The notes under the pieces were generated by a model. The model ran no database searches. It was not told where the DNA came from and worked only from the letters and a program-made list of their open reading frames with translations. The translations under genes were made by a program, and so were the position numbers. DNA of 60,837 nt, filler included, from Dirinaria sp. TL-2023a (Eukaryota), in assembly GCA_051941275.1 (NCBI GenBank). It is 8 parts of 8 records of this genome, joined end to end, with 100 filler letters (N's around TTAATTAATTAA, not from the genome) between each part and the next. Parts side by side here need not be neighbours in the genome. Positions count along the whole stretch, not along the records: positions 22,917 to 30,434 come from JAVEBF010001301.1; 7 more parts are not named here. One strand, given 5' to 3'. This document shows, piece after piece, positions 5,307 through 53,342 of this stretch; within the stretch, counting starts at the first letter, position 1; each line of letters starts with the position of its first letter.

Positions 5307-7287
5307 ATGGCGCTGGATCCTCGAGGGTTTCCTGGAATCGCTCCCGAGGTCCGTCCCCTGAAGTCTTCGGCATCTTCGCCATCGCTGCGCTCGCGAGAAT
5401 CCGAACTCGTCCCCATGGGCAGGAGTACACCAGAGAACAGCGGTGGTAACGTCAGAGTCGTCGTCCGGGTCAGAGGTTTCTTACCACGAGGTGTGTATTG
5501 ATCAAGAGCCCTTCGAATTCAGGGTTGACAGTGTCGCAGAGGTTGAACGAGGCGCGCAATGCCTGGTGGAGATGAACCCCCAGACACAGGCCACGAAACT
5601 GCTGGTACCCAATTCGAGCGACCCCGCAAATGCACGATCTCAGAGTCGCAAAGTCATCGAAGAGAAGAGTTTCACATTCGACAACTCGTTCTGGTCACAC
5701 GAGACCTCGGATTCTCACTACGCGCACCAAGAAGACATCTACAGCGCGCTCGGAGAAGAGTTCCTCGACCACAACTTCGAAGGATATCACACCTGTATCT
5801 TCGCTTACGGTCAGACAGGATCCGGCAAATCATATACAATGATGGGTACTCCGGAGCAGCCGGGCCTCATTCCTCGAACTTGCGAAGACTTATTCCAGCG
5901 CATCGAATCCAGCATCTCCCCGCACATTTCCTACACGGTCCGCGTATCCTACTTCGAAGTCTATAACGAGCACGTCCGCGATCTCCTAGTCACCCAGCGC
6001 CCCTCCCCTAACAGTGGGCCCTACTACCTCAAAATCCGCGAATCTCCGACAGAGGGTCCGTACGTCAAAGACCTCACGGACATGCCGGTGAAGAACTACT
6101 CCGAACTACTACGCTATATGCGCCTCGGGGATAACAACCGCACCACCGCCTCCACAAAAATGAACGACACTTCCTCCCGCTCCCACGCCGTATTCACAAT
6201 CATGCTCAAGCAGATCCACCACGACCTGCTTACAGACTCGACAACCGAACGTCTAGCGCGGATCCGCCTCGTCGATCTCGCCGGCAGCGAACGTGCAAAA
6301 GCAACCGAAGCCACGGGCGCCCGCCTGCGCGAAGGGAGCAACATCAACAAATCACTCACCACGCTGGGGCGCGTGATCGCCGCGCTCGCCGACCCACGGC
6401 ACAGCCGAACACACAACTCCGGAAAAGGGCGCAGCAAGGACCTCGTGCCCTACCGAGACTCGATCCTCACCTGGCTGCTCAAGGACAGTCTGGGGGGGAA
6501 CTCGAAAACGGCGATGATCGCGTGCATCGCGCCGTCGGACTACGACGAAACGCTGTCCACGCTGCGCTACGCCGACCAAGCGAAACACATCCGCACGCGC
6601 GCGATCGTGAACCAGGACTCCGTCTCGGCCGCCGAGCGCGACGCCCAGATCGCGGCCATGCAGGACACGATCCGCGAACTGCAGCTGCAAGTCGTGCAGG
6701 CGGCCGCGAACAGTGAAGCGCGGCAGCACCACCACGGCAACGAGCGAGGCACTAGCAGCAGGGACGAGAAGCTGGAGGAGTACCAGGAGAAAGTGGAGCG
6801 CATGCAGCGGCTGATGGAGGAGGAGCGCCTGGTGGGCGAGAGCAAGATCCGGCAGCTGGTCGAGCAGAACGAGGCCCTCCGCTTACATCTCAAGCTCGCG
6901 GTTGAGAGCCTTAGGAACCCGATCAAGAGTCCGCCCCCGACGCTGGATAAAGAGAATCGGGAACCTGAAGAAGCGGCCGAGGGCGAGGGCAAGGAGGAAA
7001 GTAGGAAAGGTGGAGAAGAAAAGGAGGAAGAGCGGGAAAGTAGGAAAGAAGAGGAGTGGAACGGGAACGGAGAAATCTGGGATGAAACCGAGCAGCAGCA
7101 GCAGGAACGCGATCAAGAGGCGGTGGAAATGCAGAGCCAGATGGAAGATTTGCTCATGGATCTGAATTTATTTAGGAAAAAGGTCGCGGATGATCATGTC
7201 CGTTTCGGGAAGAGGAAGAGGAGTGGTGGAAGAAGTGGTGGTCGGGGTGCTAGAGCTCCGCTGGGAGAGGTACGGGTTAATTGCTAG
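5307..7287 (+). CDS. Kinesin-3 family motor, short form without recognisable FHA/PH tail (UncB/NcKin3-like)
   Basis: ATG 5307 (MALDPRGF...GGNVRVVVRVR), intron ~5491-5539. P-loop FAYGQTGSGKSYT, NDTSSRSH, LVDLAGSER, NKSLTTLGRVI, VPYRDS, then a coiled coil and an acidic tail. Confidence 0.95.
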
Positions 7288-7546
7288 CTGGCGAAGCAGG
7301 TATATGGATGATTGGATGGATGGATTGTAGGTAAAGTATGAAGGACATGCATGCATGCATCAGCGACGGCGCATTGGGGGGGGGGAACTGGGAAGCGTGT
7401 ATTTAATTCACCTAGGGACCTGAGGGATTACGAGAAAAATAAACCGACGACTGAATCTTACTCTTATCTCCCCCCAATTTTATTGGTTCAGTAGTGTAAA
7501 TGAGAGAGGGAGAGAGAGGTAAAAAATCCCCTATTTCCTCCCCTTC

Positions 7547-7646
7547 NNNNNNNNNNNNNNNNNNNNNNNNNNNNNNNNNNNNNNNNNNNNTTAATTAATT
7601 AANNNNNNNNNNNNNNNNNNNNNNNNNNNNNNNNNNNNNNNNNNNN
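7547..7646. other. Artificial contig spacer (N44-TTAATTAATTAA-N44)
   Basis: The same 100-nt linker recurs seven times. TTAATTAATTAA gives stop codons in all six frames. Confidence 0.98.
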
Positions 7647-15184: not shown

Positions 15185-15284
15185 NNNNNNNNNNNNNNNN
15201 NNNNNNNNNNNNNNNNNNNNNNNNNNNNTTAATTAATTAANNNNNNNNNNNNNNNNNNNNNNNNNNNNNNNNNNNNNNNNNNNN
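15185..15284. other. Artificial contig spacer
   Basis: N44-TTAATTAATTAA-N44. Confidence 0.98.
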
Positions 15285-22816: not shown

Positions 22817-22916
22817 NNNNNNNNNNNNNNNNNNNNNNNNNNNNNNNNNNNNNNNNNNNNTTAATTAATTAANNNNNNNNNNNNNNNNNNNNNNNNNNNN
22901 NNNNNNNNNNNNNNNN
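22817..22916. other. Artificial contig spacer
   Basis: N44-TTAATTAATTAA-N44. Confidence 0.98.
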
Positions 22917-23547
22917 TTATGTCCTAGGGTGTTGAGGTGGGAAAGGAAAGGAAAAAAAGAAGGGGGGGGGAAGAAGGAATTTCTGTGCCTTTAGACGAGT
23001 GAAGTACCTAGTTGGTAAAAGCAAAAATAGATCCAGAATGAAGATGTACTAGTAATCCCTTTGATTCTGAATGCAATGGTATTGGAAAACCGATGTTAGA
23101 AGCAATACTAGCTACTTAGTAGCGGGTTTTGATTTTGGGTTTGGGGGATAGCTAAAGTGCTCTCCGCGTGTGTTGATAAAAACAGGCAGAGCAAGGGGTA
23201 TTTACATATCTACTACCACTACTCTCCTGCCGCCACACGTATTGGGCATAAACTCTCCAGAGAGAGAGAGGAGAAAAAAAAAATAACACTGTGTTCAAGC
23301 CCTAGCCTGTGTCATGGATCCGCGCTCATCATCATCGTCGTCGTCGTTCGACTCCGTTCACGCACGCAGAGCAATACCTCATCCGCCGTTTGTGACCGTA
23401 GACGCATGCCGAGGGATTTAGGTTGTGGTGGAGATCTCTAGGGGTAATTAGCAACGCTGAAAGGGGCTGTTTCCATTAGGTATGCACCGAAGTTGCGTGC
23501 CATTGCTCTGTGGATTTGTGACACAGCTTATGCCGAGGGAAGCCAGA

Positions 23548-26908: not shown

Positions 26909-27519
26909 TCACTGCTCATCGGCATCAAGGACGGGCCCTGTGTCGCCGTAGACCGGATCCCGGTCAAACCAGCCTAGGGATTCGATGCTTTTGACCTTTT
27001 CCTCCTCCTCGGCCTTGCCGTAGCACATATCCCAGGTACAGCCTTTGGGATAGCTGCCAACCATACTGAAACCACCCTCGATGTCATCTAGTAAGCGATG
27101 CGATACACCAGCTGGCACTACAATCACATCGCCTTTTTCCAGAATTGGCTCCACCCGTTTCAAATTATCCTCATGCCCAAAGCACAGCTTCGCTTTACCT
27201 GCTGCTACGCAGAGGACCTCGTGAGAGGTTGAGTGGAAGTGCGACGTGCTGCATTGCTTCATTAGGGGGCTTAGTAGGACTTCTCCGGCGGTCGCTCGTA
27301 CCTATACATGGTATATCTCCACTGGGGCTCTACCACCCCGACCGTCGATAGGTGTGATTCAATAGATGAGGCAGACGTATTGGCATGAAAAGCAGAGTGA
27401 TAGATCATGAGTGGTTTTTTCTGGATGGAAGTATTCGGAATGCGGCCAAAAGCGGGGAGCTGATAGGAAGAAACCCGAAGATCCTCCAGTGGCGAAACAG
27501 GTGCTTTCAAGATCGACAT
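26909..27519 (-). CDS. Cupin-domain protein (YjlB-like), 2 exons
   Basis: IPNTSIQKKPLMIYHSAF...QWRYTMY|STSHFHSTSHEVL...KGDVIVVPAGVSHR...MVGSYPKG..WDMC...DPVYG. Both cupin His motifs are present. Confidence 0.88.
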
Positions 27520-27829
27520 AGTCGATGAAGAGCGCGGACTTGTTCGCTTGGTGATGCTATGCTTGATACATGGGTTGGAGGAGATGGAGGTTGGCTGCTC
27601 GGTAGATCGAGCCTGATCAACGCGTGAAGCCGGGATCGACGTCATTGCTCCCACCAGAGTCGCATCTCGAAAGAGCTGCTGCTCCCGGTCTGCCTAATGA
27701 ATAGTCTCCCTTTAGACCAGGGTTTTTAATGATCGAAATCGTGCCTCCGTCATCTACGCCGGAGACTGGCATGCAGGCGTCTGCACAGACGTTTCCAAAA
27801 TTCCCAAAAGGGGACAACTGCAGCGGCTC

Positions 27830-29085
27830 TCATCTCCCAGTGACTTTTTCGACAACCCTATACCAAATTCAGTTACCATAAAAACGATGTATTTGCCTTA
27901 GAATACGTTACCTGAGGACGCTTGTTGAGAAATTCAGTAGCCACGCAAGGAGCGCAATGAGTAGGACTGAAGCTAAGCCCTTCTGCCGCTGGCAAATATA
28001 GATTTGCCCCGGCTTACCGATCACGCAAACACTCCCATGGCCATGTATTCCTTCATACGCAAGGCTGAGATTTGCGGAATTGAATACGATGAAAATTAGA
28101 TCCAAAAAAATCAACCGCATTTTTGCTCTGGCGGATCGCAAGCCCAAGGGTGCTCCGGTGTACTCATCGTAAGTAATGTACACAAGATAAACAAGGGCGA
28201 TTGTGTCAACAACAATGGCCAGGTCTGTGGATGCTGTGTTGCTAAGGGTTGGGTCTGCATTGGTACGGTGATAGATGGAACCAGCAAGCGACAAGGCCAC
28301 GGCAGAGAAGATAAACACGATGGAGCGGAAGACGAGAGGAATGACAGGGTTCCTTAGAATCGTACGCTGAGCTCGGAGATACCATGCCTTCCTTTTCGAC
28401 TGCCAAAATCTGATCCCGTTCATCTCGTCGTCTTCTCTAGAACCGGCAAGCCATGGACGCGAATAGTCCGCTCCATTTTGAATCAGCCACGCCTCGTCTA
28501 CGAGCATCCCTCCATTATCAGATATTGCAGGATAGGCAGAAGCATCCGCGAATGCTCTCCATCGTGAAGCGCTCCCCTGGGTAAGTACACTAGGCGTGGG
28601 TGTGGCCCAGTCCCGTTGCTTGTCGTAAAGTCTTCCACGTTCCGGCTTCTGTTTCTGCTTGGGAGCAGGCAGACTGTTATGCCGAGCGATTTGAGCAGCT
28701 GGCAATCCGTATTCGAAGAGGTAGGAGGTTGGATCATGATTTCCTTGGTCATCTTCCGGGAATTTCACCCACGCTGTAGTACCGCGATCAGTACGATTGC
28801 GGCAACAGCTTTGAGACGGACGAAGTGCGGGACGAAGGCCATTGACTGACCTGGGATCGAGCGGACAATGCGTTGAGCTGCTCTGTCATGAGCCACAGCA
28901 TCATCACCGGAGGTATTGTGTCCGTTGCTGTCAACGGAGGTCAGCTCTCCTACATTAAGCTTTTCGCTCAAGTCTGGCTGCCCGAGATCGTTTTTTTCAG
29001 GATCCTGATCAGAGGATTTGGAGGATGTGAAAGGGTGTAATAGGGACGCTGCGCGCGCTCTGAAGGTAGCCTCCCCAGGTGCCAT
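27830..29085 (-). CDS. SRF1: Regulator of phospholipase D, Srf1-like membrane protein, 3 exons
   Basis: RSIP|AWVK (intron ~28850-28774); DYSRPW; ILRNPVIPLVFR; YITYDEYTGAPLGLRSARAKMRLIFLDLIFIVFNSANLSLA; four TM helices; last exon VVEKVTGR*. Confidence 0.8.
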
Positions 29086-29354
29086 AGGTTGATAGCTAGT
29101 GCTAGGCCAGTAAGAATCGCAAATTTAAAGAGCGGCTGTAGGTTCTTTCAAACCATCGGGCACAGCATAATGGCTGACCACTCGATACATGACGGGTTAT
29201 TCGTAATCATAATTTCAATAGGTTCAAACATATGAGACGAAATTGACATTTCTAGTAGCATGGGGTTGATAGCTTACAGCCGCCAAGAAGACAGAAATCT
29301 GCCCCGGCCTCACCCCGCATCGGGCCTCGGGTGAGCGCCGCTTTAAGGTCGCGC

Positions 29355-29394
29355 GACCCGGGGTGATCCGGGGTGACCCCGGGTGATCCTGGGT
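29355..29394. repeat. Tandem array, 4 x 10-mer GA(C/T)CC(C/G/T)GGGT
   Basis: gacccggggt gatccggggt gaccccgggt gatcctgggt. Confidence 0.9.
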
Positions 29395-29459
29395 GGCTGC
29401 GCCCCCTTCCTGAGGGTGAGATGCTGCCCGATCGCCATTCTATCCGAGATCAGGTCAGC

Positions 29460-30307
29460 AGGTCTTTCGAACGTAGTGAATTCGCAGTGATTAGCGAGAC
29501 CGCTCGACGCAGAGCCTTCGTATGTCTACTAAAAAAACGGCGATAACGAAAAATGATCTAATATCGACCTCAAACGTATTCTTTTCTTTCTGTCTTCGTT
29601 AACAGTTTCTATTTCTTTGTTCTCTTTTCTTCGTTTTTCTTCCCTCTTCGCTCGCACAGCTCACGCAGCTGTCGACTTCTTCAGTATCGTCTTAAGACTA
29701 TGCGTTCGAATCTGCATCTCGTACTAGCAAGCAGCGACGATCGTTTTTAGCTTCAACGCGATCGCTCTCAGTCGAAACGTCCTCATCATGATCACGATAT
29801 TTTCTACTTCTAGCTTCGTATCTTCATCAGCACAATATTATCTGAATTCTTCTTCACGACTCGTTTTCTACGCTATCTCTCAATCGTCGTCTTCTCATTC
29901 ACGCTTCATCGAAGTCTTCACATTTTGCCGCTGCTCTTGAGTGTGTTTCAGCTGACATCTGATTGACGCTTTGACTCGTTTTCTAGCTCATTTGATATAG
30001 TCACTTGCTTGTGACAAGCAGTGAGCAATCGATATGACTGTAAAGATGATTTCAACGATAGAAAGTCATGATTAAAGCTGTGTTTCTCGCGACAAAGATC
30101 AATTAAACAAACGCTATACGTTCGTGAGCAAATTTCAATTTGCTGCGCTGCCGATGCACGTCAACATGATCTGAAACTGAGCTGCTGATCGATCTTTTGA
30201 TATTTCCTGTATGAATGAGCTTAAATTGATTGACTCGCTTCAATAAAACTCAGCTCGCATGACTTTCAAAGTTTTGTCATGAACCTGACCTGAAAGCACC
30301 TATGTGT
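29460..30307. mobile_element. Probable hypermutated repeat/transposon relic (GG/CC-depleted, no ORF)
   Basis: No GG dinucleotide in 29541-30307 and about 10 CC; stops in all frames; flanked by short tandem arrays; next to a contig end. Element family not recognisable. Confidence 0.55.
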
Positions 30308-30335
30308 GGACCCTGGAGGACCCTGAGGACTCTGA
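30308..30335. repeat. Tandem array, 3 x 9-10-mer GGAC(C/T)CTG(G)A
   Basis: ggaccctgga ggaccctga ggactctga. Confidence 0.8.
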
Positions 30336-30434
30336 TATTAAGGGGTTTTGCACTATACCCTCCTAGGCGTGTTACCCGCATACCCGACCCCCTATTTGTT
30401 GCTTGCACCTCCTGTACTTATACTTCTGCTTCTT

Positions 30435-30534
30435 NNNNNNNNNNNNNNNNNNNNNNNNNNNNNNNNNNNNNNNNNNNNTTAATTAATTAANNNNNNNNNN
30501 NNNNNNNNNNNNNNNNNNNNNNNNNNNNNNNNNN
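30435..30534. other. Artificial contig spacer
   Basis: N44-TTAATTAATTAA-N44. Confidence 0.98.
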
Positions 30535-37540: not shown

Positions 37541-38044
37541 CCATAAACATCAGATAGACCAGCACAAAACACAGCATCATAACACAAAACGAAGCGAAGC
37601 TCTATGCACACACTAGGTATTTTACGTCCATAGGATGGCTAATCATGCACGCGCAACGTGATATGAGCTACAGTACCTTCGCCATATCATAAGTACACCA
37701 ATGCAAAGAGATATGAGACTATAGATGGGAGAAAAAGGACTCGCCCTGTATATCGTTATAAGAGGAAGAATGACAAGAAGACGCACGCTAGAATTGAAGA
37801 GCTTTCATTAAACCCTCCCCTCTCCTTCTTTTCCTTTCTTGTCGACATTATTAGCGCCCCCCCCCCGGGGCCTTCTCCTCTCCACACCCCTTTCCAGACT
37901 GATCGACCAGGCCGGGTGATTCGAAAATCAGACCCCTGCTGGATTTCGGAGTGGATCAGAAAACATAGAATCACTAAGGCTGCCCTCGTTTCTCGTCGTC
38001 TTGTTTTTTTTTTTTTTTTTTTTTCTTTTTTTGGGGGGGGGGGG

Positions 38045-38144
38045 NNNNNNNNNNNNNNNNNNNNNNNNNNNNNNNNNNNNNNNNNNNNTTAATTAATTAA
38101 NNNNNNNNNNNNNNNNNNNNNNNNNNNNNNNNNNNNNNNNNNNN
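38045..38144. other. Artificial contig spacer
   Basis: N44-TTAATTAATTAA-N44. Confidence 0.98.
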
Positions 38145-45645: not shown

Positions 45646-45745
45646 NNNNNNNNNNNNNNNNNNNNNNNNNNNNNNNNNNNNNNNNNNNNTTAATTAATTA
45701 ANNNNNNNNNNNNNNNNNNNNNNNNNNNNNNNNNNNNNNNNNNNN
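45646..45745. other. Artificial contig spacer
   Basis: N44-TTAATTAATTAA-N44. Confidence 0.98.
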
Positions 45746-53242: not shown

Positions 53243-53342
53243 NNNNNNNNNNNNNNNNNNNNNNNNNNNNNNNNNNNNNNNNNNNNTTAATTAATTAANN
53301 NNNNNNNNNNNNNNNNNNNNNNNNNNNNNNNNNNNNNNNNNN
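53243..53342. other. Artificial contig spacer
   Basis: N44-TTAATTAATTAA-N44. Confidence 0.98.

Follow-up and report, generated by a model that had tools for sequence, protein, structure and literature searches.

An island of 767 nt in Dirinaria sp. TL-2023a (assembly GCA_051941275.1) contains no GG dinucleotide and only 10 CC, and it appears to form the internal, non-coding part of an interspersed repeat of about 1 kb. The depletion is real and highly non-random. The explanation that we favor, tentatively and without calling it proven, is RIP-like hypermutation of the repeat from CpC to TpC. That reading is favored rather than established because the ends of the repeat, which are rich in GG and CC, show no such change and because the depleted state seems to be shared across the whole repeat family. 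Throughout, the window is the entire stretch of DNA that was analyzed (60,837 nt), and all coordinates count along it.

GG and CC are depleted in one island of the window

The sequence-only reading had claimed that positions 29541 to 30307 lack GG on the plus strand, retain about 10 CC, and keep CA, TG, and CG in plenty, and our counts agree with it. The 767 nt comprise 186 A, 183 C, 129 G, and 269 T (G 17%, C 24%; GC 0.407). With expectations taken from the base composition of the same interval, the dinucleotides are as follows.

GG: observed 0, expected 21.7, ratio 0
CC: observed 10, expected 43.7, ratio 0.23
TC: observed 90, expected 64.2, ratio 1.40
GA: observed 49, expected 31.3, ratio 1.57
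CT: observed 77, expected 64.2, ratio 1.20
AG: observed 31, expected 31.3, ratio 0.99
CG: observed 47, expected 30.8, ratio 1.53
TA: observed 35, expected 65.2, ratio 0.54
CA: observed 49, expected 44.4, ratio 1.10
TG: observed 51, expected 45.2, ratio 1.13

For 129 G placed among 767 bases, the exact probability that no two are adjacent is 5e-12, and the lowest counts seen in 20,000 shuffles of the island were 8 GG and 24 CC. On the plus strand of the 60-kb window, the longest GG-free run is 769 nt (29540 to 30308); the next longest that do not cross an N linker measure 230 and 189 nt, and thus no stretch of equal length is found elsewhere in the window. GG and CC taken together fell below 0.6 of expectation in just two 500-nt intervals of the whole window, those starting at 29501 and 29751. 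Moreover, the observed/expected ratio of CC/GG in 400-nt intervals was 0.91 ± 0.14 for the background versus 0.06 to 0.18 for the island, and the flanks are indeed normal in GG/CC, as had been said of them. The depleted zone begins somewhat to the left of the GG-free run, near 29463.

A TT-free run of 653 nt was also noted at 6231 to 6883 (GC about 0.66, CC/GG observed/expected 0.57 to 0.66). It was considered as a sister of the GG-free island and rejected, as its translation, judged by eye, is GC-rich, kinesin-motor-like coding sequence. The TT-free run reflects codon bias.

Could the island be due to chance or to an artefact of sequencing or assembly, such as homopolymer collapse or methylation-related miscalls? 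The assembly is fragmented, with contigs that often break off at homopolymers, and the island does sit at a contig end. Chance, however, is opposed by the exact probability above, and an artefact is opposed by the continued presence of 53 AA, 92 TT, and the 10 CC. Moreover, contigs of other sequencing runs align to the island without gaps over 190 to 325 nt, one contig of 175 nt from another run (30026 to 30200) differs at 2 of 175 positions, and the best-supported differences between copies do not restore GG. Because independent contigs align gap-free, one of them with so few differences, the island is not a homopolymer or polishing artefact. We consider this whole class of explanation close to refuted and extremely improbable.

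The island is the core of an interspersed repeat

The window is a pseudomolecule of eight contigs of strictly decreasing size, from 7546 to 7495 nt. As the window is built from joined contigs, adjacent contigs have no physical linkage. The GG/CC island sits near the 3' end of the fourth contig (22917 to 30434), which encodes a cullin (Pfam Cullin, E 2e-175), an ORF with a cupin domain, and a gene of 286 plus 106 aa. Named homologs of the cullin are 78 to 80% identical and all belong to Lecanoromycetes (Lobaria, Peltigera, Psora, and Lecanora), which identifies the source as an ascomycete of the lichen-forming kind. The start of the 286 plus 106 aa gene faces the repeat, which is located upstream of it. 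The features are listed below, with depths referring to two related data sets, X1, which is a lichen metagenome, and X3.

27908 to 29085, minus strand: neighboring gene made up of ORFs of 286 and 106 aa, without a Pfam family, single-copy depth in relatives (5 to 9 in X1, 18.9 in X3)
29282 to 29462, no strand assigned: left terminal part of the repeat (the head), GG/CC-rich, with a 10-nt tandem array at 29355 to 29395 and a shared left edge
29463 to 30307, no strand assigned: GG/CC-depleted core of the repeat, 845 nt with 1 GG and 12 CC, containing the GG-free run
30308 to 30335, no strand assigned: right edge of the repeat, a 9-nt tandem array repeated three times, where GG/CC return and the coverage by copies from relatives ends
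30435 to 30534, no strand assigned: contig joiner, N44, a 12-nt six-frame-stop spacer, and N44
7547 to 7646, 15185 to 15284, 22817 to 22916, 38045 to 38144, 45646 to 45745, and 53243 to 53342, no strand assigned: other joiners of the same N44/12-nt/N44 layout

Contigs in the window often end at or near long homopolymers (38020 to 38044, 22960 to 22975, and 7360 to 7375; T20+, G12, and G9-10), which suggests that assembly breaks occur at homopolymers and not at repeats.

Three public sequencing runs matched, with small shares (0.06 to 0.07) and with no RNA run among the matches listed, and their contigs were aligned to 27000 to 30434 at a likeness of 80% or more. The flanks (27000 to 29100) were covered once, at a depth of 5 to 9 in X1 and 18.9 in X3. 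By contrast, most of the 51 X1 contigs and 66 X3 contigs that aligned fell on 29282 to 30320, where three to seven contigs overlapped at individual places and summed depth reached 67 in X1 and 208 in X3. Summed depth in these relatives peaked at 29300 to 29414, inside the head. The loose ends of eight X1 and five X3 contigs share a left edge at 29282, loose ends on the right lie at 30274 and 30320, and depth falls to zero past 30335 in both data sets. Joints of internal deletions connect 29304 to 29638, 29674 to 29737, and 29879 to 30274 among the copies, and the similarity of one X1 contig ends at 29554. Since many diverged contigs, shared edges, and deletion variants are found together, we conclude that 29282 to 30320 is an interspersed repeat of about 1 kb. 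The earlier claim of a repeated element therefore stands for the two related data sets, in which the island is multicopy and its flanks are single-copy. It does not extend to the 60-kb window itself, where no second copy was found either by blastn or by purine/pyrimidine-coded matching, the hits of the latter being rejected as polypyrimidine low complexity.

An orthologous 16-kb contig of X3 matches the window as far as about 29300 and, among the matches listed, was not seen across the repeat. The observation suggests that the orthologous site in the organism of X3 is without the insertion.

The ends of the repeat do not share the composition of its core. Three 64-nt bins covering 29282 to 29473 hold 21 GG and 25 CC, and TRF reports one array on each side of the core, of period 10 with 3.8 copies on the left (29355 to 29395) and of 9 nt with three copies on the right (30308 to 30335). 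The G/C-rich arrays that flank the depleted core could be subterminal repeats to which protein binds in a DNA transposon. The head's 10-nt motif occurs in at least 11 metagenome loci (L001 to L011), which were rejected as copies of the repeat, as they have the motif in common and are otherwise unrelated. No terminal inverted repeat or target-site duplication was found at the repeat by an inverted-repeat search and by eye. We propose that the repeat is a transposon relic or a non-autonomous element.

The island carries no coding or RNA signal

The island had been described as lacking an ORF, and indeed, its longest stop-to-stop frame is 70 aa, a frame for which no protein match was found. The island showed no 3-base periodicity and no convincing frame, and it held no Pfam relic, even when TGA was read as tryptophan. 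Such a reading, which would reverse TGG-to-TGA changes, was rejected after it gave neither a convincing ORF nor a Pfam family. An internal repeat was likewise absent from the island, including in purine/pyrimidine code. Across the repeat, a search of Rfam returned a single hit at chance level (E 0.96), and no tRNA, reverse transcriptase, or other coding relic was found.

One match deserves description. When 29814 to 30221 was translated with TGA as tryptophan, the resulting 136-aa reading matched a 50-aa sequence (P0121; E 8e-9, 54% identity) among 1.84 billion representative proteins. P0121 derives from two contigs in ENA, and a protein search with P0121 returned itself as the sole match. Evidently this predicted protein comes from a stray ORF that overlies a different copy of the repeat. 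A repeat protein of 1085 aa (P0122) that also matched the 136-aa reading was rejected as unrelated. Scans of genome and viral contigs found no further copies.

Known mutation processes do not account for the pattern

Classical RIP (CpA to TpA) is excluded. The island has a TpA/ApT of 0.565 and a (CpA+TpG)/(ApC+GpT) of 1.28, values that lie near those of the background (0.675 and 1.28) and miss both classical thresholds, which are given as above 0.89 and below 1.03, respectively, in the available part of the source (PMC3897900). Methyl-CpG decay is also excluded, as CpG is enriched rather than depleted. The sequence-only reading was thus right that the pattern is neither of these. It had further held that standard RIP indices would miss the island, and here the outcome is divided: the two classical indices do miss it, but the (CpC+GpG)/(TpC+GpA) index of RIPCAL flags it, with 0.072 in the island versus 0.84 ± 0.17 (minimum, 0.47) in 266 background intervals. 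As far as the accessible text of the RIPCAL paper goes (PMC2621366), that index is already defined as an option, CpC to TpC is merely one of four formal possibilities, and the biases reported in real fungi are CpA, CpG, and CpT. UV and oxidative damage were rejected by reasoning, as they act genome-wide, deplete TC, or give transversions.

A literature search for RIP and CpC gave no report of CpC-dominant RIP among the matches listed, and "RIP" with "CpC to TpC" gave no match, both in literature outside subscription journals. The portions seen of a RIP survey (PMC7882544) and of a paper on lichen Helitrons (PMC13535494) hold no statement on CpC or dinucleotide context.

Models of mutation and avoidance

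Saturating C-to-T change was applied in silico to ordinary DNA of the same window, and the products were compared with the island. Saturation of the 5' C of CpC on both strands gave a GC of 0.39 to 0.40 and ratios of 1.58 for CG, 0.44 for TA, 1.74 for GA, and 1.71 for TC. The rmsd to the island was 0.148 for this 5'-C model, 0.32 for a model in which the 3' C was changed, and 0.365 for unmutated DNA. A first-order chain that forbids CC and GG reached an rmsd of 0.149, equal to that of the 5'-C model. Because plain avoidance fits equally well, the excess of CG and the deficit of TA in the island are arithmetic by-products and not evidence.

That plain avoidance matches the dinucleotide profile is a point for a different explanation, in which the founder of the family was already free of GG and CC, through one ancient event or through selection or constraint, and the copy in the window inherited this state and drifted, with no CpC process here. 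We know of no function or selective reason for GG avoidance. Longer words distinguish the two models. By k-mer likelihood under Markov orders 1 to 4, the 5'-C model is ahead of the avoidance chain by 6 to 11 bits and ahead of the 3'-C model by 30 to 35 bits. In a calibration at order 2, in which the score is 5'-C minus avoidance, the value for the island is +10.9 bits. Saturating the 5' C in real segments yields 34.6 ± 9.9 bits, and 2 of these 71 segments score no higher than the island; saturating the 3' C yields -20 ± 13 bits; and avoidance simulations score -36.1 ± 10.9 bits, with none of 300 reaching the island. Moreover, avoidance predicts a GC of 0.442 versus the 0.407 observed, and it leaves the asymmetry of GA over AG and of TC over CT unexplained. 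The island also falls 2.4 SD below the pure 5'-C model, and the best fit is a mixture of 75 to 80% 5' and 20 to 25% 3' change, or else later drift. With background models trained on mostly coding DNA, and with the avoidance chain as one of several possible models of native constraint, the island lies between both models but clearly on the side of 5'-C mutation.

The same scores bear on whether a single-strand DNA cytosine deaminase, AID/APOBEC-like or other, edited the element during replication or transposition without the homology trigger of RIP. Candidate fungal deaminases exist. Such an enzyme would suit the strand asymmetry of the depletion (GG 0 of about 22 expected versus CC 10 of about 44 expected) and its confinement to the body of a mobile element, the flanks being spared. 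Both strands are depleted, however, and the favored site is a 5' C with a C as its 3' neighbor, the 3'-C model losing by the margin already given. Nor was the relic of a reverse transcriptase or other coding sequence found in the repeat. An APOBEC3G-like 3'-C model in particular was rejected, on that margin and on an AG ratio of 0.99 versus 1.57 for GA. We regard editing by a single-strand deaminase as improbable.

Differences among copies

How the copies differ from one another was compared directly. Differences from the window numbered 318 transitions to 90 transversions in X1 and 350 to 118 in X3, counts that include the single-copy flanks. The comparison by context was made on the best 40 of 668 difference places, 14 of which fall in the repeat. 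Three of the 14 are of CpC type, five are of CpA/TpA type (29521, 29577, 29833, 30067, and 30117), and six are others. The CpC-type places make up three of the five C-to-T places of the repeat within the same best 40 of 668. At each of them the window has CC: TC is found at 29500 in all four X1 and all three X3 contigs, at 29568 in two of four X1 and four of four X3 contigs, and at 29781 in four X1 contigs (23.1/76.6 of depth) and all six X3 contigs. The others are a CpT-type place on the opposite strand (29537), a CpG-type place (29576), an A>G at 29733 coupled with a G>A at 29734, and transversions at 29727 and 29760.

Within the best 40 of 668, there is no clear case among the 14 differences of a GG or CC being regained where the window has none. 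There are two exceptions of a kind: A>G at 29733 would make GG but is paired in X3 with the G>A at 29734, and the G>C transversion at 29760 creates CC in other copies. In addition, a 24-letter insert in one X1 copy was aligned by eye, and it reads GG against the GA of the window at 29469 to 29470. A comparison by codon with P0121 agrees with the T/C difference at 30117. Against AGC (30180) and CTG (30171) in the window, P0121 has glycine and proline, respectively, and against an AAA preceded by G (30174) it has glutamate. It has isoleucine where the window has GCC, and the CC of the window at 30151 is thus TC there. To judge from these small counts, GG/CC and GA/AG/TC/CT states appear to be polymorphic among copies in both directions. 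Such polymorphism is expected if CC and GG were lost independently in different copies, but drift from a founder free of GG and CC would also create it.

Because the best-supported differences do not restore GG or CC, the depleted state seems to be family-wide and old. A founder that already lacked GG and CC would account for this directly, as the best-supported sites look just as poor in GG in the copies of two other taxa and the copy in P0121 has 1 glycine and 1 proline in 50 codons. Functional ends and a core of fixed composition would likewise leave the GG/CC-rich ends intact, and the ten stray CC are, by a rough estimate, about what drift from a CC-free ancestor would give. Against native composition, CC/TC is polymorphic within X1, at 29568 and at 29781, and the k-mer score and GC of the island lie away from those of avoidance. 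On balance, we think it possible but rather unlikely that the founder was GG/CC-free from the start.

For CpC-directed mutation, the evidence likewise points both ways. The multicopy nature of the element in relatives, confinement to the repeat, divergence made up mostly of transitions (flanks included), the polarity of GA over AG and TC over CT, the calibrated k-mer score, a drop in GC as predicted, and the few CC/TC and GG/GA differences seen directly all argue for it. Against it, the left 180 nt of the same repeat, the stretch best represented in relatives, is rich in GG and CC and shows no such change, although RIP does not normally spare part of a repeat. To our knowledge, a CpC specificity that leaves CA, TG, CG, and CT unaffected would also be cleaner than any RIP described. 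Finally, differences of CpA type are at least as frequent as those of CpC type (5 versus 3, in the best 40 of 668). The proposal that C was changed to T at CpC on both strands was therefore upheld in part: the 5'-C model gives the best k-mer fit and some differences are CC/TC or GG/GA, but the ends are untouched and the depletion seems to be family-wide.

Proposed mechanism and implications

How the island might have arisen can be put as follows. A repeat of about 1 kb would have inserted upstream of an ordinary gene, and the island would be its internal, non-coding part. On both strands, the 5' C of CpC would have changed to T (CpC to TpC and GpG to GpA), and the lack of GG and CC would then be the end state of this process, which would have come near saturation by going to completion on the minus strand and about three-quarters of the way on the plus strand. 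The agent may be a RIP-like process that targets CpC instead of CpA, or an older episode of the kind in the ancestor of the family. Dependence on the 3' neighbor is the hallmark of RIP-type, DNA-methyltransferase-like deamination, and we call the process RIP-like because the mutated C depends on its 3' neighbor. We infer mutation rather than native composition, a trigger by homology, and an enzyme responsible. The ends could have been spared through selection that keeps the termini competent for transposition; a length threshold could also have spared them, should the head be a short repeat in its own right.

Perhaps Lecanoromycete fungi possess a homology-triggered, RIP-like defense that targets the 5' C of CpC and strips GG and CC from repeats while CpA, CpG, and AT content stay nearly untouched. 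We consider this generalization doubtful. If true, a CpC defense would be invisible across fungi to RIP screens based on AT-richness and TpA/ApT, the RIP machinery or another deaminase could shift to a different sequence preference, and a natural enzyme with a new dinucleotide specificity would exist. Confirmed genome-wide, it would be an unreported flavor of fungal repeat mutation and a variant of a known genome defense. Lichen fungi are not crossable in the laboratory, so genomic footprints are the main route to their genome defenses. If the composition is native instead, there would still be an oddity to explain, namely a mobile element that does entirely without GG.

Comparison with known systems

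As an element, the repeat resembles a non-autonomous DNA transposon with subterminal repeats in being about 1 kb, non-coding, and multicopy, with shared edges, deletion derivatives, and tandem arrays at its ends. It differs in that neither terminal inverted repeats nor a target-site duplication was found. Among other lichen fungi, the parts available of the respective papers describe classical, AT-enriching RIP in Cladonia (PMC12542154) and classical TpA-based RIP indices in Endocarpon (PMC3897900). The CpG- or TpCpG-biased, RIP-like hypermutation of MATE in Aspergillus and Ty1 in Microbotryum, as described in the part seen of PMC2621366, offers a parallel in that context preference varies by fungal lineage. 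Unlike the targets of those processes, the island is enriched rather than depleted in CpG.

APOBEC3G deaminates the 3' C of CC in retroelements and gives GG to AG. CC is a target in both cases, and the island has lost GG more fully than CC. Yet in the island it is GA and not AG that is enriched, both strands are affected, and the setting is fungal and non-retroviral.

Classical RIP of the Neurospora type, which depends on RID and DIM-2, is the remaining comparison. RIP in Neurospora uses CpC less than any other context. The target in the island would be CpC, TpA is not raised, CpA and TpG are not lowered, and part of the repeat is spared, all unlike classical RIP. If the island was indeed mutated, the likeness lies in the hit on a repeated non-coding element with adjacent single-copy genes spared, in C:G-to-T:A change on both strands with dependence on the 3' neighbor, in a fall of GC from 0.51 to 0.41, and in sharp borders with genic DNA.
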